Shown in pieces: positions 1 through 61,382 of a stretch of 61,937 nucleotides of DNA. Numbering within the stretch: the stretch's first letter is position 1; every line of letters begins with the position of its first letter. The notes below the pieces were generated by a model. It saw only the letters and a list, made by a program, of their open reading frames with translations, did not search any database and was not told where the DNA came from. The stretch comes from Acidobacteriota bacterium (GTDB lineage Bacteria > Acidobacteriota > Terriglobia > Bryobacterales > Bryobacteraceae), in the NCBI GenBank assembly GCA_005808475.1, contig SYLY01000099.1, forward strand, positions 1 to 61,937, written 5' to 3'. Both the position numbers and the translations under genes were made by a program.

Positions 1-1226
1 CCCGCAGCGCGATTACTATCGCATGGCCGCGATGTTCTCTGGCAGCGAGGAGCGCGAGATGCACACCGGCAGCCGGATGGCGTGGGTCGAATACACGCGC
101 CACCTCGCGCGCGAGCTACAGGTGGACGAGTTGAAGAAGCAGGTGCTGCTCCTGCAGGGCAAGGCGAAGGGCCGCGAATTCACCGCGCAAGAGAAGGACC
201 GCCACGAGAGCCTGCTGCGCCAGATCGGCGTGGCGTACCTGAAGGCTCCCAAGAAGCCGGATACGGCCAACGTGCTGACGCACACGGACAAGATCCACGA
301 CACGCATGTCCTGACGCGCGGCGAATGGAAACAGAAGGGCGAGAAGGTGGAGCCGGGTGCGCCGTCTTTCTTCGACAACGGCGCCGTGGTGAAGGATCGC
401 GAACGGCGTAAGGCGCTCGCCGAATGGATCGCGTCGCCGGACAATCCGCTGTTCGCGCGCGTGATGGTGAATCGCGTCTGGCAGGGTCACTTCGGACAAG
501 GGCTGGTGGCGACTCCCAACGATTTCGGCCGGCAGGGCGATCCGCCGTCGCACCCCGAACTGCTCGACTGGCTGGCGGTGGAGTTCGCCGAAAGCGGCTA
601 TCGCGTGAAGGCGCTGCACAAGCGAATCCTGCTGTCGGAGGCGTATCGCCGCGCGAGCGCGGGTGGCGCCGGCAACGCGAAGATCGACGCGGACAACCGG
701 TACTTGTGGCGGATGAACCGGCGGCGGCTCGAGGCGGAAGCGGTGCGCGACGCCGTGCTGGCCGCGTCGGGCGCGTTGCGCGCGGACAAGACCGGAGGCC
801 CACCCGTGGCGATTCCGCTCAGCGAGGAAGAGAAGAACGGCATGCGCGACTCGTCGCAGTGGGCCGTGAACGGAGATCCGGCGGAGTTCGACCGGCGCAG
901 CGTTTATCTCTACGTGAAGCGGTCGTTCCGGTTGCCGATGTTCGAGACGTTCGACGCGCCGGATTCGGTGGCCAGTTGCGCTCGGCGGGAATCGTCGACG
1001 GTGGCGCCCCAGGCGCTGGCGATGATGAACGGCGAGTTCGCCAACCGGCAATCGAAGGCGCTGGCCGCGCGGTTGCGGCGCGAGCATGCGAGCGACGAGG
1101 CGCGGGTGGATGCCGGCTATCGATTGACGTTGGGACGCGACACATCCGATCGGGAGAAAGAGCGCGCTCTCGGCTTCCTGAAAACCAACCCGCTGGAACG
1201 GCTGTGTCTGCTGTGGTTCAATCTGA

Positions 1227-1249
<23 letters not shown>
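1..1249 (+). CDS. DUF1553 domain-containing protein, C-terminal part; 5' end lies outside the window
   Basis: Frame is open from the window edge. The protein is typical of the Planctomycete/Acidobacteria DUF1553 family, which pairs with DUF1501. Its stop overlaps the start of the next gene. Confidence 0.75.
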
Positions 1250-2675
<1,426 letters not shown>

Positions 2676-2753
2676 TCGCGCCGGCGGCCTCGCTACGTCC
2701 GCGGCCGGCCATTCGTCCCTTGTCGCGGAACCGCGAATACTTGTGAACCTCCT

Positions 2754-3134
2754 TCACATCGGGAATTCCGCGGCGATCAGTTGCTTGACTCCCGCCGGGC
2801 CGGTGAGCGTCAACAGCCATCCCGCCTCATTGCCGGATGCGGAAAGCTGAAGCGTGAGGAACGGGCAGCACAGGCGCTCCATGCCGATCCACTCGGCGGC
2901 TTCGGGCAGCGTCATGGCTTTGCTATCCAGCTTGAAAGCATAGCCGTTTGAAATCTCGACGCGGCCCCGAACGGCCGCGCGGAGACGCTTTACAAGGTCG
3001 CGATAGCGGGGCCGTTCCCCGGCGCCGATCGCCTTCGGATTGCAAGCGAGAAGAGGCGCGGCGGCCTTTTCACCCGCGGCGTCGCACATGCGGACGCAGA
3101 GAAGGGAAGCACACAGCGCGATTGCGGTTTTCAT
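2754..3134 (-). CDS. hypothetical small secreted Cys-containing protein
   Basis: ORF with an N-terminal signal-peptide-like segment ([13 protein letters not shown]). Divergent from the MerR regulator gene. No recognisable family. Confidence 0.4.
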
Positions 3135-3180
3135 GTTCCGACTGTAATACTTGAAGCCGGCTTCAAGTCAAGGAGTTTCG

Positions 3181-3573
3181 ATGACCATCGGCGAACTGGC
3201 GGCCGAAACCGGACTGCCCGCTTCCACAATCCGGTATTGGGAGAAGATCGGCGTCCTGCCCAAAACCACGCGAATCAGCGGGCAACGCCGCTATGCGCCG
3301 GATGCGGTCAATCGTTTGGCCGTGCTTCAACTGGCGCGATCGTGCGGGTTCCGGCTCGACGAAATGCGGCATTTGTTGCACGGCTTCGACCCCGGCGTGA
3401 AGCCTCCGCGCCGATGGCGGGAACTGGCGCGCAGGAAGCAACAGGAACTCGGCGAACAGATAGCGCGCCTCGAGGCGATGAGGCGGCTGGTGGAGCGTGT
3501 CTTGCGATGCCAGTGTGTCGAGTTCTCCGAGTGTGGGCGCCTTGCGGTGTCCGCGATGGAATCCGCTCGATGA
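3181..3573 (+). CDS. MerR family transcriptional regulator
   Basis: N-terminal [36 protein letters not shown] is the MerR signature. AGGAG Shine-Dalgarno 7 nt upstream of the ATG at 3181. C-terminal CQCVEFSEC cysteine cluster suggests a metal or redox sensor. Confidence 0.85.
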
Positions 3574-3892
3574 AATCGTTGCTGCTGTACTCACTGGCGG
3601 CGCTAGCCGAAATCGGGGGATGCTTTGCCTTTTGGGCGTGGCTGCGGCTCGGCCGGAGCCCGCTCTGGACGCTTCCCGGCGCTGTTTCGCTCGTTGTGTT
3701 CGCGCTGGTGCTGACGCGCGTCAGCGCGCCGGCGGCGGGCCGTGCCTACGCTGCCTACGGGGGAATCTACATTGTTTCCTCATTGTTGTGGCTGTGGTTG
3801 ATCGAGGAGACGCGCCCGGATCGCTGGGACATGATTGGGGCCTGCATCTGCCTGCTGGGCGCCGCCGTGATTCTACTCGGTCCCCGCAACGG

Positions 3893-3896
<4 letters not shown>
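3570..3896 (+). CDS. ynfA: YnfA family (UPF0060) small membrane protein
   Basis: About 108 aa with 4 TM helices. Sequence [28 protein letters not shown] is typical of YnfA. ATGA overlap with the merR stop. Confidence 0.75.
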
Positions 3897-6507
<2,611 letters not shown>

Positions 6508-28859: not shown

Positions 28860-30331
28860 TTGGCGGGCCCGTGGTACGGTGGCTCCATGCCGAACCCGAA
28901 TCCCATCGCCCTCGCCCTGCTACTACTGGCGGCTTCTCCCGCCGCCGAGGCAAGCCTGGCGGTCTATGTGGGCAAGGACTTGACCAAGGACGGCAGCGTC
29001 CTGTTGGCGGGCTTCGGCGACGAACCGTCGAGCCATTGGCTGACGATCGTTCCGCGACGGCGGCATCCCGCCGGTTCGGAGATCGCGGCCGGCGGCGGAC
29101 CGGCCTCTCGCATGCCCGGCGAACCGATTCGCATTCCCCAGGTCCCGGAGACGCATCGCTACATTTCGATGGATTACTCCTACTACTCGGGGCTGCCCGC
29201 GCCGCTGACCAACGGAGGGATGAACGAACACGGCTTGGCGGTGCGGGACGTTGCGTTGTTCTCGCGGCGCGAACTGGTGGAGACGACTCCCAATCCGCAG
29301 CGCGGCCTCAACTACAGCGACATCGCGCGCATCGCGCTCGAACGCGCGCGGACGGCGCGAGAGGCTATCGATATCTCGGTGGACCTCATCGAGAAGCACG
29401 GCGACTTCACCTATGGCGGCAACTCGCACGTGTTCGCCGATCCGAACGAGGGCTGGGTGTTACTCACGTTCGCCGGCGGAAAGGGGCTTTGGGTTGCCAA
29501 ACGGTTGGGTCCCGGCGATGTCTGGCTGAACTGGCGGGGGTACACGGGCTTCGGCTACGTTCAGGACTTGCCGCGGGACTTCCGTGACAACGCCGATTAC
29601 CTCGCTTCGAAGAACTTCGTTTCGTTCGCGACGCAACAGGGTTGGTACACACCGGACGGAAAGAAGCCTTTCCCGTCATCGACGTTTACGCCCGTCAGGG
29701 CCAGGCCAGCGAGGCTACGGCGGTGGAAGCGCGCCGGGCCGAGGCCGCGATCCGCGCTGCCGGTAAGGTGGACGCGCGCCTGCCGATGGAACTGCTGCAC
29801 GCGGCGGGCAAGGACTCGTCCGGCTACGGCCAAGTGGCTCACCTGCGCGCGAACATCCATCCGGATTTGCGGACGCTGTGGGTCGCTCCGGGTCCGCCTG
29901 TCACGGCGGCGTTCGTTCCTTGGCGGATGGGGGTGGAGTCCGTTCCTCCCGAATACCAACGCCACCGGTACCTCACGGCCGGAGAGGCGGAGCGGCAGAC
30001 GATTGCTTTGGCCGATCGGAGCGTGGAAGGCACTCGCTACGTGAATCGCGCCGTCAAGCGGCTCCTCTATCTGGTGGACGAGCACCGGGACGAATTCCTG
30101 CCGGAAGTGAGCGCCGCCATGGCGGCGTTCGATCGCCGGCAACTTGCCTCGCAACCGGCGGTGGAGCGAACGGCTCAGGTGCTGCTCGATGCTCGCGAAG
30201 ACGCGTTGGCAAGGCGCTATCTGACGGAGCAGGCGCACGCGGCGGCTCGCGAGGGCCACCTTCTGATCGAGGCTCTGGCGGCCAGTATCGAGGCGCGCGC
30301 GAAGCTGAAACCTGGTGCGAGTTTTCGATAA
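28860..30331 (+). pseudogene. C69-family dipeptidase-like gene, frameshifted near 29660-29700
   Basis: Signal peptide plus SLAVYVGKDLTKDGSVLLAGFGDEP (C69 N-terminal Ntn-like block, Ser in place of the usual Cys). The protein-like reading continues in a second frame (ORF 29642..30331) after GWYTPDG. The first frame degenerates into Arg/Pro-rich junk. Confidence 0.65.
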
Positions 30332-30439
30332 TGTCCCCATAGGCGTTCATTAGAAATGTCCCCTAGAGGCTGAAGACCTCCAAGGGAGGCGGAAATGGCG
30401 AGAACAGCGATGAGCGAGCAGGAACCGAGGTGAGCAACG

Positions 30440-30957
30440 TTGCTGGCGCAGGTGAAGAGTGGGGCCTGGACGCTGGTGCAAGAGGCCGACCGGCTGGAGA
30501 TGAGCTACCGTCAGGCCAAGCGGTTATGGAAGCAATACAAGAAGAAGCGTGCGGTAGGGCTCGTGCATGGCAGCGCCGGACGAACCTGCAATCGGGCCAA
30601 GCCCAAGGAGCTACGTCGGAAGGTGGTGCGACAGATCGGCCAGAAATATTCCGGTGAAGTGGGCAAGCGGTTCGGGCCGACGCTGGCGACTGAGCACTTG
30701 GCAAGCGAGGACGGGGTTGAGTTGCCGGTGACGACGATCAGGCGGTGGTAGCGGAGGGATTATGGAGAAGTGCGAGAAAGGCGCGTCAGCATCGGCAGAG
30801 ACGGGAGCGGCGCGAGCACTTCGGGGATCTGGTGCGGATGGACGGAGGCTTTCATGAATGGCTCGAAGATGGCGGACCGCGGGGCTGCATCATGAACATG
30901 GTTTCAACGACGATCCCGGCATTCCCTGCCCAATACGCGATTCGGAGGAGTCCATGA
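30440..30957 (+). pseudogene. ISNCY-like (DDE/rve-type) transposase N-terminal remnant, frameshifted and truncated
   Basis: HTH region MSYRQAKRLWKQYKKKRAVGLVHGSAGRTCNRA and ...FGPTLATEHLASEDGVEL... then, in another frame, HRQRRERREHFGDLVRMDGGFHEWLEDGGPRGCIMNMV. The catalytic DDE core is absent. Confidence 0.6.
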
Positions 30958-31244
30958 AGTGCTTTCGTGCGGTAGTGGGGCTCATCGTTGCAGCCTTGCG
31001 GACAGACGCTGAATCCGGTGGGCGACAGATCGACACCGCAAGGCCGCCTCGAAGCTCCCAGCTCCCGCCTGACCCTGTGGAACAATTCCAGCAATGGCAG
31101 GGTCCGCACTCCCCAAGCACCCTCCAAAGCCAGTTCGTGATCACCCGCTGGCCGCTAAACACCGCGCCGTTTTGCGGGTTCAATTGGCGTATGCCATTAT
31201 GAAACTGGAGGTGCCATACGAAAGCTGTCGAGTTTGAAGCCACG

Positions 31245-31448
31245 ATGAGCCAAGGCGGGGAGATCGTTCTTCCGGCTGAGTTTCTTCGAGAAATCCCGGC
31301 GGGGCAGCAACTGAAGGTCGTCGTAATGTGGGAGGCCGGATCGGCCGACACGGCGTGGCGTGCAGCCGGGCGGCTGAGATTCGAAGAAGCCTACGGCGCC
31401 GAGGACGTTATCTACGATCAACTCATCAATGAAACTCCAGGTCGCTGA
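31245..31448 (+). CDS. putative antitoxin (small AbrB/MazE-like) of MazF/PemK toxin
   Basis: 67-aa ORF whose stop overlaps the MazF-like toxin start by 20 nt. An in-frame TGA lies 15 codons upstream of the ATG. Confidence 0.5.
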   Translation: MSQGGEIVLPAEFLREIPAGQQLKVVVMWEAGSADTAWRAAGRLRFEEAYGAEDVIYDQLINETPGR

Positions 31449-31755
31449 AGTCGTATTGATCCGCATGCAGTTTCATCAGGCTCCGGGCTCGAAGATCCGG
31501 CCCGCGCTTGTCCTGATGGATCCGGGTGACGAGGATTTCGTGGCTGCGCCGATCACGTCTCAGCCGAGGGCGTCCGAGTTTGACTTGGCCGTCGCGGACT
31601 GGCAGCCGGCTGGTCTCAATGTTCCTTCGATGGTGCGAGTGCACAAACTTACCGTTCTGTCCAAGGCCGATATTGTTCGCCGGCTTGGAGTCTGTTCAAG
31701 CGCCGATCAGGAAGCGCTAGCAAAGCTACTGTGCCGCGTGTTTTGCCCAGCGTGA
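31429..31755 (+). CDS. MazF/PemK family toxin (type II TA endoribonuclease)
   Basis: AEVVLIRMQFHQAPGSKIRPALVLMD...FVAAPITSQPR...VRVHKLTVLSKADIVRRLG matches the PemK/MazF signature (RPALV, APITS). Confidence 0.8.
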   Translation: MKLQVAEVVLIRMQFHQAPGSKIRPALVLMDPGDEDFVAAPITSQPRASEFDLAVADWQPAGLNVPSMVRVHKLTVLSKADIVRRLGVCSSADQEALAKLLCRVFCPA

Positions 31756-32111
31756 GGGGGAGTCGATCATGACAGATATGACAGATAGTGGTCCTAACGC
31801 GGAGTTAACCATTCGCGTAGCGAAGTCGCGGCCGCATGGACAGCACGAATCAAGCTGGCTGAAGGGCTCTTTGGCGCTTTAGGTGTACCTCGGCGGCGCC
31901 CGCTGAACCTTGCGGAACTCTAAGCGCCCGGCCAAGGCCATGCAGACTCCGCCCCGGGCCGAGGCTCCGGAAATTCCAAACTGGCTACGAAGAAGAAGGG
32001 GACACTTCTAGCTAACGCCGCGGGATGGGGACATTTCTAAAGACCGCTGACAGCGCGAGTCTGAAGCCTTGACATCTTTCGCGCGGACCGATAGAGTCTT
32101 CGCAGCCCCTC

Positions 32112-35100
32112 ATGAAGCTGCTTGCATTCGCGGTCCTCGCATCGGCGGCGGTCCACGCCCAATCGTCCACGGCGTCGCTCTCCGGCGTCATCACCGATCC
32201 CAGCGGCGCCATCATCCCCAGCGTGGACGTCGCCGCGCGGCACGTCGACACCAATCGCGGCTTCTCCGCGCGGACCGACAACGATGGCCGTTACAACCTG
32301 TTGACGCTGCCGATCGGGCGGTACTCCGTTTCCGCCACGGCGCAGGGATTCAAAACGCTGGAGCGCGAAGTGGAACTGACCGTGAACCAGTCGGCCAACC
32401 TGAACCTGCGGATGCAGGTGGGCCAGACCACGGAGGTGGTGGATGTCACCGCGCAGGCCCCGCTGGTGAATGCCACCAACTCCACCGTGGGGACGTTGAT
32501 GGAATCGCGCCAGGTGCTCGATCTGCCGCTCAACGGCCGCAACTTCACGCAGTTGATCGCGCTCACTCCGGGCGTCGCCAACGTTGACGTGTCGCAGGGA
32601 GGCGCGGGGCCGGCGGTGCAAGGCCAGCGCAACCGCAGCAATCTGTACCTCGCCGACGGCGTGATCAACTCGAACCTGGCGGGCAGCCAGATATCGGTTT
32701 CGCCGCCGCTCGACTCGATCCAGGAGTTCCGCGTGGAGTCGGTCCACAACGACGCCGAGTTCGGAGGCGCGTCGGGAGCTTACGTCAATCTCTCGACCAA
32801 AGCCGGGACCAACCGGCTTCACGGCACGGCCTACGACTTTCTCCGCAACGACGTGCTCAACGCACGCAATACGTTCCAGCCCACCGTGCCCAAGTTCCGT
32901 AACAACATCTACGGATTCTCGGTGGGCGCGCCGCTGCTGATTCCCAAGGTCTACAACGGCAAGGACCGGACGTGGTTCTTCGTCAGCCACGAAGGCGTGA
33001 AGAACCGCGCCTCGTCGTCGAGCATCACGCGGGTCGCCAACGCCGCCGAGCGGGCGGGCAACTTCGCCGGAACGGCCGTGTTCGACCCGTACTCGACGCG
33101 CTCCGATCCGGCGCGGCCCACGGCGTTCCTGCGCGATCCGTTCCCGGGCGGACAGGTTCCGGCGGCTCGTTTCCACCGCATCGCCGCGCGTTATCTCGCC
33201 GACTTCTCGCCGCTTCCCAACTTCACGCTGGCGGGCACGGTGAACAACTATCTGGTGACCGGGCCCAACAAGAGCGACACCGGAATCTGGGTGTTCCGCG
33301 TGGATCACACGTTGTCGCAAAAGGACCGCGTGTCGCTGCGGTCCACGCGGTCGGACGCCTCGTCGGAAAACGTGGGCATCTCGCCGGTGATCACGCTGGG
33401 CGTGAGCGACGTTCGCAACTGGAGCGCTGAATGGAATCGCATCATCTCGCCCACCACGCTGCTCACGGTGCGATACGGCTACAACCGCAACCGCTCCGAC
33501 AATTCGTACCGGAACGTGGAGAAGGTGTCGGAGTTCATCGGTTTCGCCGACTCGTATAACTCAGACGCGTTCTCGACGCGCATTCCAGATCGCGCGCTGT
33601 TCCCGGGCTATGGGATTCAGAACTACGCGGGCCTGGTTGGGACAGGCTACTCACCCACCGACAACTTCCCGCACTCCGGCGCGGTGAACCTGCAGAAGAC
33701 AATCGGCCGGCACTCCTTCAAAGCCGGTTTCAATCTGATGCACTTCGACTACTACACCAGCGGCATCTCGCAGACGCTGAACTTCACCGCGCAGCCGACG
33801 CAGAATCCGGCCGCGCCGGCGGGCACCGGCCAGCCGTTGGCGAGCTTTCTGCTAGGCGTGCCATCCAACGCCACCCGTCCGCTGGGAAATCCGGACATCG
33901 ACGCTCATGGTTGGATGTACGCTATCCACCTTTCCGACACCTTCCGGGTCAACGGCCGGCTGAGCCTCAACTACGGCGTCCGCTGGGACAAGAACGGGAA
34001 CTTCCTGTCGCGAAGCGGAACGATGGGGAGCTTCGACCGAACGACCGGAGCATGGCTGCTCGACGGTCCCATCAATATCCCCGGCGCGATCTTCCAAGGT
34101 CCCAACGTCCGGCGCGGCTTCGTCGATCCCGACTGGAACAACTTCTCTCCGCGGCTGGGCGCGGCCTACTCGATCACCCAGAAGACGGTGGTTCGCGCGG
34201 GCATGTCCACGTTTTACGAGATGTTCGCCGGCTGGTTGCAGATCGCGCAGGGCAACCGCAACGCATGGCCGCATTCCACATTTCAATCCACCGACACCCT
34301 GAACGCGACGGTTCCCACCGTGTTCATCGACCGGCCGTTCCGCGGTCTGCCGGACCGGGTGGACCGTCCGAATCCGTTCCCCTCGGCCGGCTATCATCTC
34401 AACCGCTTCTTCAAGACGCCCTACGTCCACGAGTGGAACGTGTCGGTGGAGCGCCAGTTCAGCGACCGTCTGGCGGCGTCGGTCACCTATGTCGGAGCGA
34501 AAGGCCGGACGCTCGAATGCTGCGGCCTGACGAACTATTCCACCGTTCTCGCCGCCGGCAACGCGCGGGCGCCGGAACGCGTCCCGTACCCGAACATGCT
34601 GGTGTTCCGCACCAACGACAACAGCGGCAGATCCGACTATCACGGGCTGCAAACCAAGATCGAGCAACGGTTCCACAACGGACTCTCGTTCTCGTTCAAC
34701 TACACGTTCTCCAAGTCGATCGATCTGGCGTGTTCGGGCTACATCGGCGCGGAAGGGTGCAATCTGCAGCAGCCCTACAATCTGTCCGCCGAGCGCGGCG
34801 TGTCCAGCTACGATCTGACGCATATCGCCAACGCCACGTTCATCTACGAGATCCCGTTCAAGCCACGCAACTACGCGGTGAACCTGATCGCCGGCGGATG
34901 GCAGACCAGCGGCATCCTGAACTGGCGGAGCGGACTTCCGTTGACGCCCGGTCTGGCCGTGGACAACGCGAACAACAGCGGCAGCCAGCAGCGTCCGAAT
35001 CTGGTGGGCGACGCGGGCCTGGCCGGGCAGAGCCGTCTGCGTTGGTTCAACACCGCGGCGTTCGCGCTGCCCGCCCGCTACACCTACGGCAACGCCGGCA

Positions 35101-35330
35101 GGAACATACTGCGCGGACCCGCGGCGGCCACGCAGAGCCTGTCGTTGTTCAAGAACTTCGCCGTGCTGCCCGAACGGCTGAAAGTGCAGTTCCGCTCGGA
35201 CTTCTTCAACGCGTTCAACCATCCGTTGCTCGGGAGTCCGGGGCTCACGTTCGACACGCCTACGTTCGGCCAGATCAACTCGGCGTCGGGCAATCGCACG
35301 ATCCAGATGTCGCTGAAGGCGATCTTCTGA
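32112..35330 (+). CDS. TonB-dependent receptor with N-terminal CarboxypepD_reg-like domain
   Basis: Signal peptide. SGVITDPSGAIIPSVDVAARHVDTNRGFSARTDNDGRYNLLTLPIGRYSVSATAQGFKT (CarboxypepD_reg), plug, and a 1072-aa beta-barrel with a C-terminal aromatic residue. Confidence 0.9.
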   Translation: MKLLAFAVLASAAVHAQSSTASLSGVITDPSGAIIPSVDVAARHVDTNRGFSARTDNDGRYNLLTLPIGRYSVSATAQGFKTLEREVELTVNQSANLNLRMQVGQTTEVVDVTAQAPLVNATNSTVGTLMESRQVLDLPLNGRNFTQLIALTPGVANVDVSQGGAGPAVQGQRNRSNLYLADGVINSNLAGSQISVSPPLDSIQEFRVESVHNDAEFGGASGAYVNLSTKAGTNRLHGTAYDFLRNDVLNARNTFQPTVPKFRNNIYGFSVGAPLLIPKVYNGKDRTWFFVSHEGVKNRASSSSITRVANAAERAGNFAGTAVFDPYSTRSDPARPTAFLRDPFPGGQVPAARFHRIAARYLADFSPLPNFTLAGTVNNYLVTGPNKSDTGIWVFRVDHTLSQKDRVSLRSTRSDASSENVGISPVITLGVSDVRNWSAEWNRIISPTTLLTVRYGYNRNRSDNSYRNVEKVSEFIGFADSYNSDAFSTRIPDRALFPGYGIQNYAGLVGTGYSPTDNFPHSGAVNLQKTIGRHSFKAGFNLMHFDYYTSGISQTLNFTAQPTQNPAAPAGTGQPLASFLLGVPSNATRPLGNPDIDAHGWMYAIHLSDTFRVNGRLSLNYGVRWDKNGNFLSRSGTMGSFDRTTGAWLLDGPINIPGAIFQGPNVRRGFVDPDWNNFSPRLGAAYSITQKTVVRAGMSTFYEMFAGWLQIAQGNRNAWPHSTFQSTDTLNATVPTVFIDRPFRGLPDRVDRPNPFPSAGYHLNRFFKTPYVHEWNVSVERQFSDRLAASVTYVGAKGRTLECCGLTNYSTVLAAGNARAPERVPYPNMLVFRTNDNSGRSDYHGLQTKIEQRFHNGLSFSFNYTFSKSIDLACSGYIGAEGCNLQQPYNLSAERGVSSYDLTHIANATFIYEIPFKPRNYAVNLIAGGWQTSGILNWRSGLPLTPGLAVDNANNSGSQQRPNLVGDAGLAGQSRLRWFNTAAFALPARYTYGNAGRNILRGPAAATQSLSLFKNFAVLPERLKVQFRSDFFNAFNHPLLGSPGLTFDTPTFGQINSASGNRTIQMSLKAIF

Positions 35331-35950
35331 CGCTGCCGCTCCCGTGGTGCTGAAGGAACAGCAGCCGGAAGGCGGCTTCGTGTCGATCGACAGCCTGATC
35401 GCGCCGCCGCCGAAGCCGGCCGCCAAGATGGAAGAAGTCAGTTCGTTCGGCGACTAGTTTTCTCGCGGGGCAACCCAAAGAAGGCCACCGGATGTACCGG
35501 TCGAAGCTCTGCTTGTAGCGCACTGCCTCGGCGTCATGCAGCGAGGCCAACCTTATCTCCGAATCCAGCGAGTAGTGAAGCTGGCGGGTGAGTCCCAGGC
35601 GATTTGCGGCGTACCGCGCGTCGAGTTCCGGATTGAGTTCACGCGCCGCCTAGAAGTGGGCCACGCGCAGCGTCCGCCCGTAGCACTTGAAGCCGTGCCG
35701 CAAGGTGGCGAGCGGGCCCTTCGGAATCCATCCACTTGCACAGGCCGCTCAGCACCTGATCGCTGGTCCTGTCTCCGAGCAGAGCTTCCAACTTCCGCCA
35801 CTCCTCGGGCTGCGTTTCGCGGATGACGCCAGCACCTCCACGGGGAAGATGGCATCCTCACGGCCAAAGCTGCCCGCCGGAACCGCATTGTATCCGCCTT
35901 CGAGCAGTTCCTTCTCGATCACCGTCTCAAAGGCGTATTCGCTGATCGTT
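35331..35950 (-). pseudogene. gene debris: frameshifted fragments including an HsdR-like N-terminus (MKTISEYAFETVIEKELLEGGY...)
   Basis: Minus-strand protein-like segments in three different frames separated by stops (MKTISEYAFETV...; ...EEWRKLEALLGDRTSDQVLSGLCKWMDSEGP...; ...ELNPELDARYAANRLGLTRQLHYSLDSEIRLASLHDAEAVRYKQSF...). A 42-codon plus-strand ORF tail follows the TonB receptor stop. Confidence 0.45.
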
Positions 35951-35951
35951 T

Positions 35952-36446
35952 TCATACGCCCACTCCCAGGACAAACCTCGCCCGCTCGCGCCGTAACATT
36001 TCGTGAGGCAGCACACTCCCCAAGCCCAGGCCAAGGCAAGCGTCTGGAATCTTGACCCGATTCACGGAGCCACCTGGCACTTCGTAGGTCACTACCGCGT
36101 GCCCGCCCTGGCGGGCTTGCGCCACGAGATGGAAATCGGCCGTTTGCAGAAACTCGTTGATGGCAGGTGTCCTATAGTTCTGGCTCGATGCCCAGGTGCT
36201 CACGGCGGTAAAGTGCGGGACCGTCGCCGCATCGGGCGACAAGAAGAACGTTCCCGGCAACGCCTTCACCCATTCGGCCAAGTCGTCCTGCTGGTCCTTC
36301 AATTCGTCATAGACGCGCTCGATGCTGTAGACCCGGCCAACCCTGTGCTCCGCGACGATCCAATCCCAGAATCCCGGACAGAAGTCGAACCCGTAGTGGA
36401 CACGCTTCGCCGTGATCAGGACATTGCTGTCGAGCAAGTAGGCCAT
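35952..36446 (-). CDS. DUF4411 family PIN-like protein (putative toxin/nuclease)
   Basis: MAYLLDSNVLITAKRVHYGFDFCPGFWDWI is the DUF4411 signature. 1-nt overlap with the upstream ImmA/IrrE gene. Confidence 0.75.
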   Translation of the reverse strand: MAYLLDSNVLITAKRVHYGFDFCPGFWDWIVAEHRVGRVYSIERVYDELKDQQDDLAEWVKALPGTFFLSPDAATVPHFTAVSTWASSQNYRTPAINEFLQTADFHLVAQARQGGHAVVTYEVPGGSVNRVKIPDACLGLGLGSVLPHEMLRRERARFVLGVGV

Positions 36447-37600
36447 TAGCCACTGAACCCCAATCTCCGCGCGAGGCTGTCGAATGTCATGACCCTCTTG
36501 CACCCGAGCAGGCGCATGGCTTCCCGGAACGTGGTCCGGCCGCCCAAAGTGCTTGCGACCAGGGCATGTTCGAACCGGTGGCTGACGCGCGCGCCGAGCG
36601 TCCGGTAGAAGTCGCCACCCCCGGTGGCGGCGGGAGCCACTTCCTTTAGCTTCTCCACCTCTTTCCTGTATTCAGCCCAAAACTGCTCGCGGCTCCGAAA
36701 TGCCCCGGCTTCCCACATGCGGCGGAGAATGACGAGGCTGCTTACCTTGAATCGGCGCGTGAGCCGTGCCGTCGCGTCCGCTACGACTTCCCCCGCCTGC
36801 AACTCCTGCTCGAGGACGGCCAGCGGTACCAGCACCTCGGCCGACACTTGGTTGCACCAGCGCTCGGTCGCTTCATCGGGAAACGCAGATGCCTCGGCAT
36901 CGGAGAGCGCCGATTCGCCCAGCGCAAGATGCGCCAGTTCATGGGCGATGGTGAACATCCGCGCGGACTTCGAATCAGCGCCGTTGACGAAGACGAGCGG
37001 CGCATGCGGATGCGCCAGCGCAAACCCGCGAAACTCATTCGGGTCGAGTTTCCGGTGCGTGTTGCTTCCCACCACCCCGCTGACCATGATCAGGATGCCC
37101 GCGTCCTCGACCGACTGAATCATGCGACGCAGGGCCTCGGCCCAGGTGCGATCCAGTCTGCGCTGCTCCAGATCGAAGGCAATGGCGTCCCGGATCATTC
37201 GTGCCGCATCCGCGGTCGCCGTGGTCCTCGTCAGGGAGCCCACCAGACGCACCGGGTCCAAGCGCTCCTCGCGCGCGAACTCTTCGAACCAAGCCTGCCG
37301 CTGCTGGCACAGGTAAATCGTGTCGAGAAGGTCTCCGCTCGGCCGTCTCAACGCCTCTGGGCGCCGCGTGCGAAAGTCCGGGATCGGAAGAGGTTCTTCC
37401 GGCGGCGCGGCGAGAAAGAAGTACCCAAACGGCGTGTAGGTGGCGGCGGCGAAATCTTCCAGTTGCCGGAACGTGGGCGCGGACTCGCGCTCCAGCCACG
37501 CGTTGAGCCTTGGAAACCTCCGCTCGAGCATCTCCGGTTTTTTGCCGGAACGCTCCACGGCCCAACGCAGGATTTCGGGCGCAACCTCCATATGAGCCAT
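36446..37600 (-). CDS. ImmA/IrrE family metallo-endopeptidase with N-terminal HTH-like domain
   Basis: Zn-peptidase HEXXH (FTIAHELAHLAL). N-terminal domain resembling the XRE/antitoxin module. Canonical partner of DUF4411. Confidence 0.75.
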   Translation of the reverse strand: MAHMEVAPEILRWAVERSGKKPEMLERRFPRLNAWLERESAPTFRQLEDFAAATYTPFGYFFLAAPPEEPLPIPDFRTRRPEALRRPSGDLLDTIYLCQQRQAWFEEFAREERLDPVRLVGSLTRTTATADAARMIRDAIAFDLEQRRLDRTWAEALRRMIQSVEDAGILIMVSGVVGSNTHRKLDPNEFRGFALAHPHAPLVFVNGADSKSARMFTIAHELAHLALGESALSDAEASAFPDEATERWCNQVSAEVLVPLAVLEQELQAGEVVADATARLTRRFKVSSLVILRRMWEAGAFRSREQFWAEYRKEVEKLKEVAPAATGGGDFYRTLGARVSHRFEHALVASTLGGRTTFREAMRLLGCKRVMTFDSLARRLGFSG

Positions 37601-60228: not shown

Positions 60229-61382
60229 CAGATCTTACTCCACATGTCCGATCGCGGATCCTCGGGATGGAGTTGCGCCAACTCCCGCAGGATCTCGCGG
60301 CTTCGTTCGTCGCGCGCCAGCGGCGCCTGCACCGCGATCTCCACGATGAGATCGCCGCGCTTGTCCTTGCGCTGATTGTAGATGCCCTTGTCGCGCAGGC
60401 GGAACTTCTGCTCGTTCTGGGTCCCCTGCGGAATCTTGAGCAGGGCCTTGCCTTCCACCGTCGGAACCTCGAGCTTGGTTCCGAGCGCGGCCTCCCACAC
60501 GGTGACCGGCACTTTGATGTGCAGGTCCTCGCCCTCGCGCTCGAAGAAGGGGTGCGGCTCCACGTTAACTGTGATGTAGAGGTCGCCCGGAGGCCCGCCG
60601 AGTGTCCCCGCGTTGCCTTTGTGGGCGACGCGCAGCCGGTCGCCCGGCTTGACTCCCGCCGGAAGCTTGACCTCGACCTGATCGCCGGCCGTGGTCCGGC
60701 CTTCGCCGTGACAGGCTGTGCAGACGTTTCGCAGGCGGCCAGATCCTTCGCACTTGGGGCACGTCAGGTTGAACTTCATCGCGCCCGCCTGTTGGGTCAC
60801 GTTGCCGCTGCCGTTGCATTGCGGACAGACGATGTTGTTGCTTCCCGCCGCTCCCGATCCGCGGCAGGCTCCGCAGGTCTCGTGCCGCTGGATGGTGAGG
60901 CGCGCCTGCGTTCCCTTGACGGCGCGCCAGAAGTCGACGTTCAGCGCGTATTCGAGGTCGGAGCCGCGTTGCGGTTCCGAGCGCCGCTGCTGCGCCCGCC
61001 CGAAGAACTGGCCGAACAGATCGCCGAACCGCGAGTTCGGTTGTCCGGCCTGCTCGTCCTTGGGAGCGCCGAACATATCGGTGAAGTCGAAACCGCTGAA
61101 GTCCATGTGGGGCTGGCCGGGTCCCGGATGCGATCCCGGGGGGCCGCCCTGCATGTTCTCCGAATAGAAGCCGTGCTGATCGTAGACGGCCTTCTTCTTG
61201 GCGTCGCCGAGGACCTCGTGGGCTTCGGATAGATGCTTGAAACGCTCTTCCGCGGCCTTGTCGCCGGGGTTGAGATCGGGGTGGAACTTGCGCGCGAGCC
61301 GGCGGTACGCCTTGCGGATCTCATCCTCGGTGGCTCCCCGGCGCAGGCCCAAGGTCTCGTAATAGTCCTGTTTCTGCGGCAT
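60228..61382 (-). CDS. dnaJ: molecular chaperone DnaJ
   Basis: J-domain with HPD. Four CxxCxGxG zinc-finger repeats ([32 protein letters not shown]). Confidence 0.95.

Follow-up and report, generated by a model that had tools for sequence, protein, structure and literature searches.

In the IS1202 family of insertion sequences (IS), each end holds a second internal box, providing multiple binding sites in the manner of TnsB (Harmer, Pong & Hall, 2023, PMC10132070). The ISTde1 subgroup of this family generates direct repeats of 15–17 bp (Siguier et al., 2022, bioRxiv 10.1101/2022.12.17.520857), and a related IS1202 subgroup is site-specific for dif/XerC sites (PMC10132070). For the groups with long duplications, however, no target is reported in either survey (bioRxiv 10.1101/2022.12.17.520857; PMC10132070), and we found no later literature describing one. 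The stretch of DNA analyzed here, hereafter the window, comprises 61,937 nucleotides from a member of the Bryobacteraceae (Acidobacteriota; assembly GCA_005808475.1, contig SYLY01000099.1), and its positions 30313–32052 are the 1740-bp fossil of an IS1202-family IS (NCBIfam ISNCY_2) of the long-duplication type seen in the ISTde1 subgroup. We hold with good confidence to an overall reading in which this dead element, carrying inside it a slice of a chromosomal mazEF-like toxin-antitoxin (TA) locus, was inserted upstream of the promoter of a TonB-dependent receptor gene, and in which its relatives target promoter −35 elements. The locus itself is a routine fossil, an IS1202-family remnant with a damaged mazEF-like pair, of a known kind; the insertion of its relatives 15–17 bp upstream of −35 hexamers is, as read from sequence, a candidate new target specificity in the IS1202 family.

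The span of the element was established from its homology with the relatives L004–L006 and from the flanking duplication. To this end, the closest transposase homologues (71–72% identity) were located on their contigs and the DNA was aligned to the window, yielding the following features at and beside the two ends.

30297–30312: left copy of the target-site duplication, GCGCGAAGCTGAAACC, 13/16 identical to the right copy and directly outside the TGT...ACA-type end
30313–30364, plus strand: left inverted repeat (IRL), aligned with the IRLs of L004–L006, with tip TGG and an inward GATAAT
30326–30338: IRL box 1, ...GATAATGTCCCC
30351–30363: IRL box 2, TAGAAATGTCCCC
31997–32052, minus strand: right inverted repeat (IRR), ending in ...CTGACA on the plus strand, with inward tip TGTCAGCGG...
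32039–32027, read inward: IRR box 1, TAGAAATGTCCCC
32010–31998, read inward: IRR box 2, TAGAAGTGTCCCC
32053–32068: right copy of the target-site duplication, GCGCGAGTCTGAAGCC, directly outside the TGT...ACA-type end
32069–32097, plus strand: host sigma70-type promoter of the receptor gene, TTGACA, 17 nt, TAGAGT (promoter scan 10/12, the best in the region)

In the window and in L004/L005 and L006, the right copy of the duplication is followed directly by TTGACA or TTGTCA. A genome scan covering one genome per species with the pattern AATGTCCCC-N10-18-TAGAARTGTCCCC provided 74 non-redundant IRR flanks for the analysis of this feature, with 36 IRL flanks as comparison. The pentamer TTGAC starts 15, 16 or 17 nt beyond the IRR in 3, 15 and 13 flanks, respectively (31/74), and occurs in at most one flank at any other offset and in 1 of the 36 IRL flanks, while at least five of the six positions of TTGACA are matched in 37/74 flanks against 1/74 at control offsets. 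A −10-like TANNNT follows the hexamer at 16–18 nt in 18 of the 31 flanks, at exactly 17 nt in 13 of them; other spacings from 8 to 29 nt yield between 0 and 2, and chance expectation is about 0.7 (estimate for 60% G+C). The preference for TTGACA extends across many IS sub-lineages with different tips and across several phyla, and the right end always faces the promoter, with the transposase gene pointing in the promoter's direction. The window follows the same arrangement, its IRR facing the receptor promoter and its transposase gene co-directed with it. The element ends exactly 16 bp before the −35 hexamer and 59 bp before the receptor ATG. Lying beyond the target duplication, the promoter belongs to the host and was not brought in by the IS.

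On balance, we lean toward regarding the long-duplication IS1202 relatives with AATGTCCCC boxes as "promoter hunters", the transposase of which would recognize a −35 element of the sigma70 type, whether through direct readout of TTGACA or through docking to sigma/RNA polymerase (RNAP) bound at the promoter, and integrate 15–17 bp upstream of it in a single orientation. In the proposed mechanism, the transposase, or a transpososome reading a promoter-bound host factor, would take a TTGACA-type −35 as landmark and make staggered cuts 15–17 bp apart immediately upstream of the −35 element. The core promoter and the downstream gene would thereby be left intact, making for a "safe haven" insertion. 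An alternative notion, in which the target mimics the IRR tip (TGTCAA), was weakened by lineages with TGTCAT or TGTCG tips that show the same TTGACA preference. A test for gene starts downstream of the targeted promoters was equally positive in the controls, owing to long random open reading frames (ORFs) in high-G+C DNA.

A tandem arrangement was observed in L034 (positions 1137–4374; Bryobacterales metagenome-assembled genome, CBDDCL010000015.1), where a 17-bp duplication, CCCGGCCGCTGGTGAAG, is present in three copies, one between and one on either side of two different IS1202-type elements in the same orientation, beside an ATCAAC motif. One target seems to have been used more than once here, as would be predicted for a landmark that is not part of the duplication and so survives the first insertion.

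A different explanation of the flank statistics invokes selection instead of targeting: insertion would be close to random, or would occur at any TTGAC, and only the harmless copies upstream of promoters would survive. The enrichment of the −10 element along with the −35 is compatible with this explanation, given that recognition of TTGACA by itself would not need a −10, and so is the TGTCAACGC lineage, in which just 2 of 6 flanks reach five of the six TTGACA positions. Two sources of the co-enrichment are conceivable: real promoters, perhaps with sigma/RNAP bound, may be what is recognized, or intragenic insertions may be purged. Survival bias, however, cannot produce a fixed distance of 15–17 nt and a fixed orientation, as seen in the concentration of TTGAC at three offsets beyond one end and its near absence elsewhere, and it is for this reason that targeting is favored. 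The tandem double insertion at one site in L034 and the site-specificity of a related subgroup for dif/XerC (PMC10132070) also speak against selection, and we consider it unlikely as the main source of the pattern.

The family assignment of the window element draws on both its coding remnants and its ends. Segments 30440–30751 and 30745–30957 match positions 3–99 and 100–153 of NF033594 (transpos_ISNCY_2), with E-values of 3.8e-17 and 2.3e-11, and the full-length relative L043 scores 359 bits against the same model (cut-off 250). A full-length relative is 34–35% identical over some 375 aa to the transposases of ISKpn21 and of Acinetobacter ISNCY elements. ISKpn21, which both surveys place in the IS1202 family (bioRxiv 10.1101/2022.12.17.520857; PMC10132070), and an Acinetobacter pittii element served as reference elements for the comparison. 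The alignment of relatives shows conservation of D, DD, D, E and of Q at E+7, and in it the GELVQLDGS, VDDAT, LYTDWK and GRVERNHGTHQ motifs align with ISKpn21; the window copy retains only the first catalytic D. All ends compared share the layout TGT + 14 nt + AATGTCCCC + 12–16 nt + TAGAA(A/G)TGTCCCC, and ends composed of tip, 14 nt, AATGTCC and a second box are also found in the Acinetobacter (L141) and ISKpn21 (L140) elements. End motifs differ in relatives from Rhizobium and Phyllobacterium plasmids. Complete relatives measure 1523–1624 bp and contain one ORF of 420–498 aa; an intact example is the 1598-bp element at locus L022 in the Bryobacterales chromosome OZ253444.1. The window copy, at 1740 bp, falls outside the definition of an intact member (a single ORF of 400–500 aa in 1.3–2.0 kb) and is a derivative, because its transposase gene is broken and internally replaced. 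Its 16-bp duplication (13/16), together with the 15–17 bp of 13 complete relatives, corresponds to the ISTde1 type; in the interval of the 5–10-aa ISTde1 indel, the relatives are only 3–4 aa longer than the ISKpn21 and Acinetobacter enzymes and L125 about 10 aa longer.

At each end of the window element there are two (T)AGAA(A/G)TGTCCCC boxes, 25–29 bp apart, and all four are intact. The 13-mer TAGAAATGTCCCC is present at 30351–30363 (plus) and 32027–32039 (minus), with a one-mismatch copy at 31998–32010 (minus); at two or fewer mismatches, three copies were observed against 0.55 expected, a count reached by 1 of 100 shuffles, and the motif pair was not found elsewhere in the 62-kb window. A sequence-only reading of this DNA had described a decayed ISNCY-type IS at 30330–32111 with two copies of this 13-bp motif at each end, and had put the receptor gene 70 bp away. 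The decayed ISNCY-type IS is borne out by the NF033594 matches to both fragments and the bounds are not, the true ends lying 17 bp outside those motifs on each side in the alignment with L004–L006. Three of the four copies hold at one mismatch or fewer, whereas the outer left one has only AATGTCCCCAT (30330–30340) in common with its partner at 32025–32035 and differs from the full 13-mer at four positions. The proposal that the repeats bind transposase is plausible, and their doubling is real but ordinary: since IS1202-family ends normally hold two transposase-binding boxes each, double subterminal repeats are the usual family architecture. The motif pair recurs in at least 120 genome stretches from the Acidobacteriota, Verrucomicrobiota, Planctomycetota, Chlamydiae, Legionella, Spirochaetes, Gemmatimonadota and others. 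The recurrence of the terminal motif at other IS copies, suggested in that reading as a check, is seen in the complete elements of other genomes, and the target-site duplication that it proposed to look for is also present.

This duplication is 16 bp long, with three differences between its copies. The relative L006 shows a perfect 16-bp duplication, and 13 further complete elements have perfect or near-perfect repeats of 15–17 bp directly outside their TGT...ACA ends. Because the duplication of the window likewise lies directly outside both ends, the two ends are attributed to one old insertion event. The left tip, TGG, is one substitution away from the TGT found in 137/142 related ends, and the right end, ...CTGACA (32052), fits the TGT...ACA ends of the family. 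The G+C content of the element is 58–62%, against 64–71% in the flanks, and a search of 30000–32400 against Rfam gave no relevant match.

Several side observations concern the ends and the closest relatives of this IS. An inverted repeat, CCCCTAGAGG...CCTCCAAGGGA (30358–30387), overlaps both the inner left box and the GGGAGG that precedes the transposase start, and received a terminator-like score for the minus strand; by analogy with other IS, it might hide the ribosome-binding site when transcripts read through into the element. Most relatives have an outward TTGACA as the terminus of the right end and, in the left end, an inward GATAAT 14 nt from the tip (32047–32052 and 30327–32 in the window). 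By analogy with copy-out-paste-in IS, joining the ends with a spacer of about 3 bp would form a junction promoter; a 16-bp spacer would not. The closest relatives of the window IS, L004 3906–4832 (927 bp) and L005 3906–4914 (1009 bp), are internal-deletion derivatives that occupy one shared site beside TTGACA, upstream of a gene for a 273-aa secreted protein and near a TonB-dependent receptor gene, and decay by internal deletion seems to be common in this lineage. A candidate second IS copy in the window, proposed from a weak tblastn match at 60658–61029 and AGTGTCCCC at 60601, was rejected, the region being DnaJ.

Between its ends, the window element is composed of the following segments.

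30410–30748, plus strand: transposase remnant, codons 1–113, with two helix-turn-helix (HTH) regions (tblastn against P0018, P0012 and L006 orf1, 60–68% identity; NF033594 positions 3–99)
30745–30915, plus strand: transposase remnant, codons 114–174, in another frame (tblastn; NF033594 positions 100–153), with the first catalytic D in LVRMDGGFH
30916–31157: filler of 242 bp
31158–31921, plus strand: slice of a chromosomal mazEF-like locus that takes in the promoter region, both genes (antitoxin and toxin) and about 165 bp of non-coding sequence after the toxin gene
31218–31448, plus strand: antitoxin gene, 76 codons in relatives (MKAVEFEAT...), with ACG as codon 1 here (31218–31220)
31429–31755, plus strand: intact gene for a MazF/PemK-type toxin of 108 aa (PF02452, 40.1 bits against a cut-off of 23.1, E-value 4.8e-10)
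31922–31996, plus strand: transposase 3'-end remnant, a variable C-terminal tail (blastn of 31920–32052 against the right ends of L004/L005, 76% identity)

To judge from its sequence, the transposase gene is dead. An in-frame TGA interrupts codon 8 (30431–30433), a 4-bp deletion near 30749 shifts the frame, and similarity to the transposase ends after codon ~174 (about 30915–30930), with blastn matches to L004–L006 stopping at 30882–30902. In place of codons ~175–410 stands about 1 kb of foreign DNA, beyond which IS-derived DNA resumes at ~31922 with the tail of the transposase gene, followed by the IRR. The sequence-only reading had missed the stop codon and had described a frameshifted HTH fragment devoid of a DDE core; the frameshift stands, but the first catalytic aspartate (LVRMDGGFH) is kept. 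A faint continuation of the transposase (NDDPG...AVVGL, 30900–30990) was discarded as unsupported by BLASTP against about 80 homologues. For the 242-bp filler, blastn gave no match among some 140 retrieved loci or elsewhere in the window, and its ORF matched no protein family.

The TA block (31158–31921, about 760 bp) has 84–89% DNA identity to L137 (over 31158–31919), L138, L139, L007/L010/L011, L012 and L016, all of them mazEF-like loci from other members of the Acidobacteriota whose chromosomal surroundings are unrelated; the similarity stops exactly where the right part of the IS begins. An overlapping antitoxin-toxin pair is also present in L007–L016 and L137–L139; in the window, the first 20 nt of the toxin gene overlap the antitoxin gene. 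The toxin has 404 homologues, mostly from the Acidobacteriota and the best of them 92–93% identical, and matches the MazF3 structure 5UCT with an E-value of 0.009, while the antitoxin matches no Pfam family or PDB structure. The ratio of nonsynonymous to synonymous substitution rates (dN/dS) against relatives is 0.10–0.18 for the toxin and 0.16–0.39 for the antitoxin, and these low values indicate that the pair was under selection for most of its history. The antitoxin ATG has become ACG, and an internal ATG at 31245 starts a 67-aa ORF (31245–31448). It is this ORF that had earlier been taken for the antitoxin gene, a description to be amended to a gene of 76 codons that has lost its start, alongside a MazF-like toxin that is confirmed by PF02452. 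The sequence suggests a TA pair in decay, with the antitoxin now probably made, if at all, only as the N-terminally shortened 67-aa product. The proposed route is illegitimate recombination or repair, through which, either in the present copy or already in its parent, a TA slice of a chromosomal locus would have taken the place of the transposase core; the TA block would be a passive passenger.

The non-coding DNA 3' of the toxin gene, 130–165 bp in length, is about 80% conserved across TA loci (window 31756–31921; L007 4328–4451; L137 1248–1379). It has a core, CAGCACGARTCAARCTGGCTGAAGGG, no conserved ORF and no Rfam match, and may serve as a terminator, as a small RNA or in regulation.

The chimera is no assembly accident, since the contigs of two other sources match: an ENA contig is 100% identical over 29900–32400, and two Logan contigs have an identical toxin and the same gene order from the TA genes through the right end motifs into the receptor gene. 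These observations place it at a single locus in four assemblies (the window and L001–L003), with the same flanks wherever the contigs reach. The sequence-only reading had seen in it a TA-stabilized vehicle and the representative of a family, that is, a non-autonomous IS derivative, mobilizable in trans, with the TA pair as stabilizing cargo. The intactness of all four transposase-binding boxes would suit such a vehicle, as would the intact toxin, under purifying selection in comparisons with relatives. Precedents exist in the passenger-carrying "transporter IS" of the IS1202 family (ISKpn21, ISRel10, ISShal2) and in the TA pairs integral to some Tn3-family transposons (PMC7157771). Against it stand, on the one hand, the confinement of the chimera to one locus, the absence of matches in two scans of JGI metagenomes (for the TA/IS junction and for TA plus IRR, exact matches only), the absence of a TA pair from all 18 other complete elements (0/18), and the lack of the IS end-motif pair in the ten TA relatives examined, with a lone AATGTCCCC 9-mer in the toxin gene of L138. 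On the other hand, the block brings with it the flanking non-coding DNA of a chromosomal locus, the antitoxin has lost its start codon, the duplication differs at 3 of 16 positions, as in an old insertion, and the left tip departs from the common TGT in a way presumed to affect cleavage. The vehicle family is therefore highly improbable. The TGG tip, the lack of a transposase and the divergence of the duplication mark the element as old and, in all likelihood, immobile. It is even harder to credit that the two IS ends derive from two different insertions bracketing a native TA locus, for although about 1 kb of the interior is unrelated to IS, direct repeats of typical length matching at 13/16 positions lie outside the ends (chance of about 3e-5 in a binomial estimate with p = 0.3 per base), the polarity of IRL and IRR is correct, and the 5' and 3' transposase remnants are collinear.

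Several points weigh against the overall reading of a dead IS1202-family fossil with a TA slice inside, inserted upstream of a host promoter by a lineage that targets −35 elements. A good TTGACA is present at no more than about half of the insertion sites, and the poorly matching TGTCAACGC lineage mentioned above includes copies in a Bryobacterales chromosome (OZ253444.1). The −10 enrichment could stem from the loss of intragenic insertions rather than from whole-promoter recognition. The empty orthologous site was not recovered, the nearest long contig (L142, dipeptidase 68% identity) being not syntenic. With regard to the chimera, the scans detect exact matches in JGI metagenomes only, so that diverged copies are missed, and within the source genome the search covered the window, with further copies or an intact helper possible beyond it. 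Lastly, the toxin ORF is intact and the dN/dS of both TA genes is low, and the pair may still be working from the internal ATG at 31245.

Two host genes flank the element.

28860–30331, plus strand: C69-family dipeptidase pseudogene (ORFs 28860–30044 and 29642–30331; PF03577 and NF033678 match residues 35–267 of ORF1)
32112–35330, plus strand: intact TonB-dependent receptor gene, 1072 aa (CarboxypepD_reg, OMP_b-brl_4 and TonB_dep_Rec_b-barrel by Pfam, identical gene in L001)

The dipeptidase is frameshifted near 29650–29690 (...GKKPFP/VIDVY...), about 630 bp upstream of the IS, as seen in the Pfam and NCBIfam matches to ORF1 and in homologues 61–78% identical to ORF2. An independent ENA assembly has the same truncated ORF1, and ORF2 is an identical protein (P0241) in NCBI and Logan; in all probability the gene is a genuine pseudogene, its frameshift having nothing to do with the IS. 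The stop codon of the dipeptidase (30329–30331) falls inside the left inverted repeat, the last five codons and the stop being supplied by the element's left end, such that the insertion turns the end of the protein from ...KLKP* into ...KLKPGASFR*, adding GASFR. Removal of the IS and one duplication copy in silico restores ...AAG CTG AAA CCT TGA. The ancestral dipeptidase is accordingly predicted from sequence to have ended in ...KLKP*, with a stop overlapping the −35 hexamer, and the expected empty site would read ...GCGCGA(A/G)(G/T)CTGAA(A/G)CC followed by TTGACATC..., with the dipeptidase TGA within CCTTGACA. Of what the sequence-only reading had said about these neighbors, the frameshift in the dipeptidase and the abutment of the element on the receptor promoter, 16 bp before the −35, are upheld. 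The element does not begin directly after the dipeptidase stop, which it contains; it did not inactivate the dipeptidase, the protein end of which it merely extended; and it did not donate the promoter, which is host DNA. Directly downstream of the receptor gene, three minus-strand genes (35749–36943; L001 7308–8502) encode a 68-aa ORF, a DUF4411 protein and a faint match to Peptidase_M78 (ImmA/IrrE-like), a cluster that resembles a second TA or defense-type module.

For annotation purposes, the element is to be recorded as an IS1202-family remnant with a damaged mazEF-like pair, and not as a new class of TA vehicle. If the proposed targeting is true, it fills the gap on the target of long-duplication subgroups left by the two IS1202-family papers, and provides a second independent instance of landmark-directed insertion by a TnsB-like transposase without accessory targeting proteins. 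It would then predict IS landing sites and the possible rewiring of upstream regulation with core promoters spared, and would offer a simple, testable system for target capture giving an unusually long stagger of 15–17 bp.

The comparison with known systems places the window among the long-duplication IS1202 groups, with which its lineage shares an HTH-HTH-DDE transposase of 420–500 aa (D/DD/D/E, with Q at E+7), TGT...ACA ends with the inner inverted-repeat box repeated internally at each end, a size of 1.5–1.6 kb, duplications of 15–17 bp and a wide phylogenetic spread on mostly chromosomal locations. It departs from the published account of these groups in the TTGACA/−35 landmark beside the right end, and the window copy is itself dead and chimeric. 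The transporter IS (tISKpn21, tISRel10, ISShal2) and the TA-carrying Tn3 transposons (PMC7157771) resemble it in having non-transposition genes between their ends, type II TA pairs in the case of Tn3, but they retain a working transposase and recur as families, whereas the cargo of the window element stands in place of the transposase core, is found a single time and has suffered damage of its own. The TA block agrees with type II MazEF/PemIK systems in its above-threshold match to the PemK_toxin family of Pfam, in the overlapping small upstream gene and in the conservation of the pair at many Acidobacteriota loci; it differs in an antitoxin with no Pfam or structure match and with ACG as its start codon.

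The closest counterpart of the proposed targeting is found in the ISAjo2/ISAba32 subgroup, the dif/pdif "hunters". Their end architecture is the same, the Acinetobacter element L141 reading TGT + 14 nt + AGAAATGTCC + second box, and they too keep a fixed distance and orientation to a short host site while encoding no accessory targeting proteins. ISAjo2 is thought to dock on XerC. The two groups are set apart by the 5-bp duplication of the ISAjo2/ISAba32 subgroup, with the XerC arm of dif-like sites beside the IRL, in contrast to the 15–17-bp duplication and the promoter −35-like hexamer beside the IRR in the present group. Further afield, landmark-directed integration is known from yeast Ty3 at RNA polymerase III start sites, from Tf1 at RNA polymerase II promoters and from Tn7 at attTn7. 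These systems have different enzymes and hosts, and yet they share with the group described here an insertion that keeps a set distance to a landmark of transcription or of the host and spares the gene. By analogy, if promoter targeting by the long-duplication groups is true, it would represent a bacterial counterpart of the promoter-directed integration of Ty3 and Tf1, and a sequence rule for the landing of a widespread IS group.

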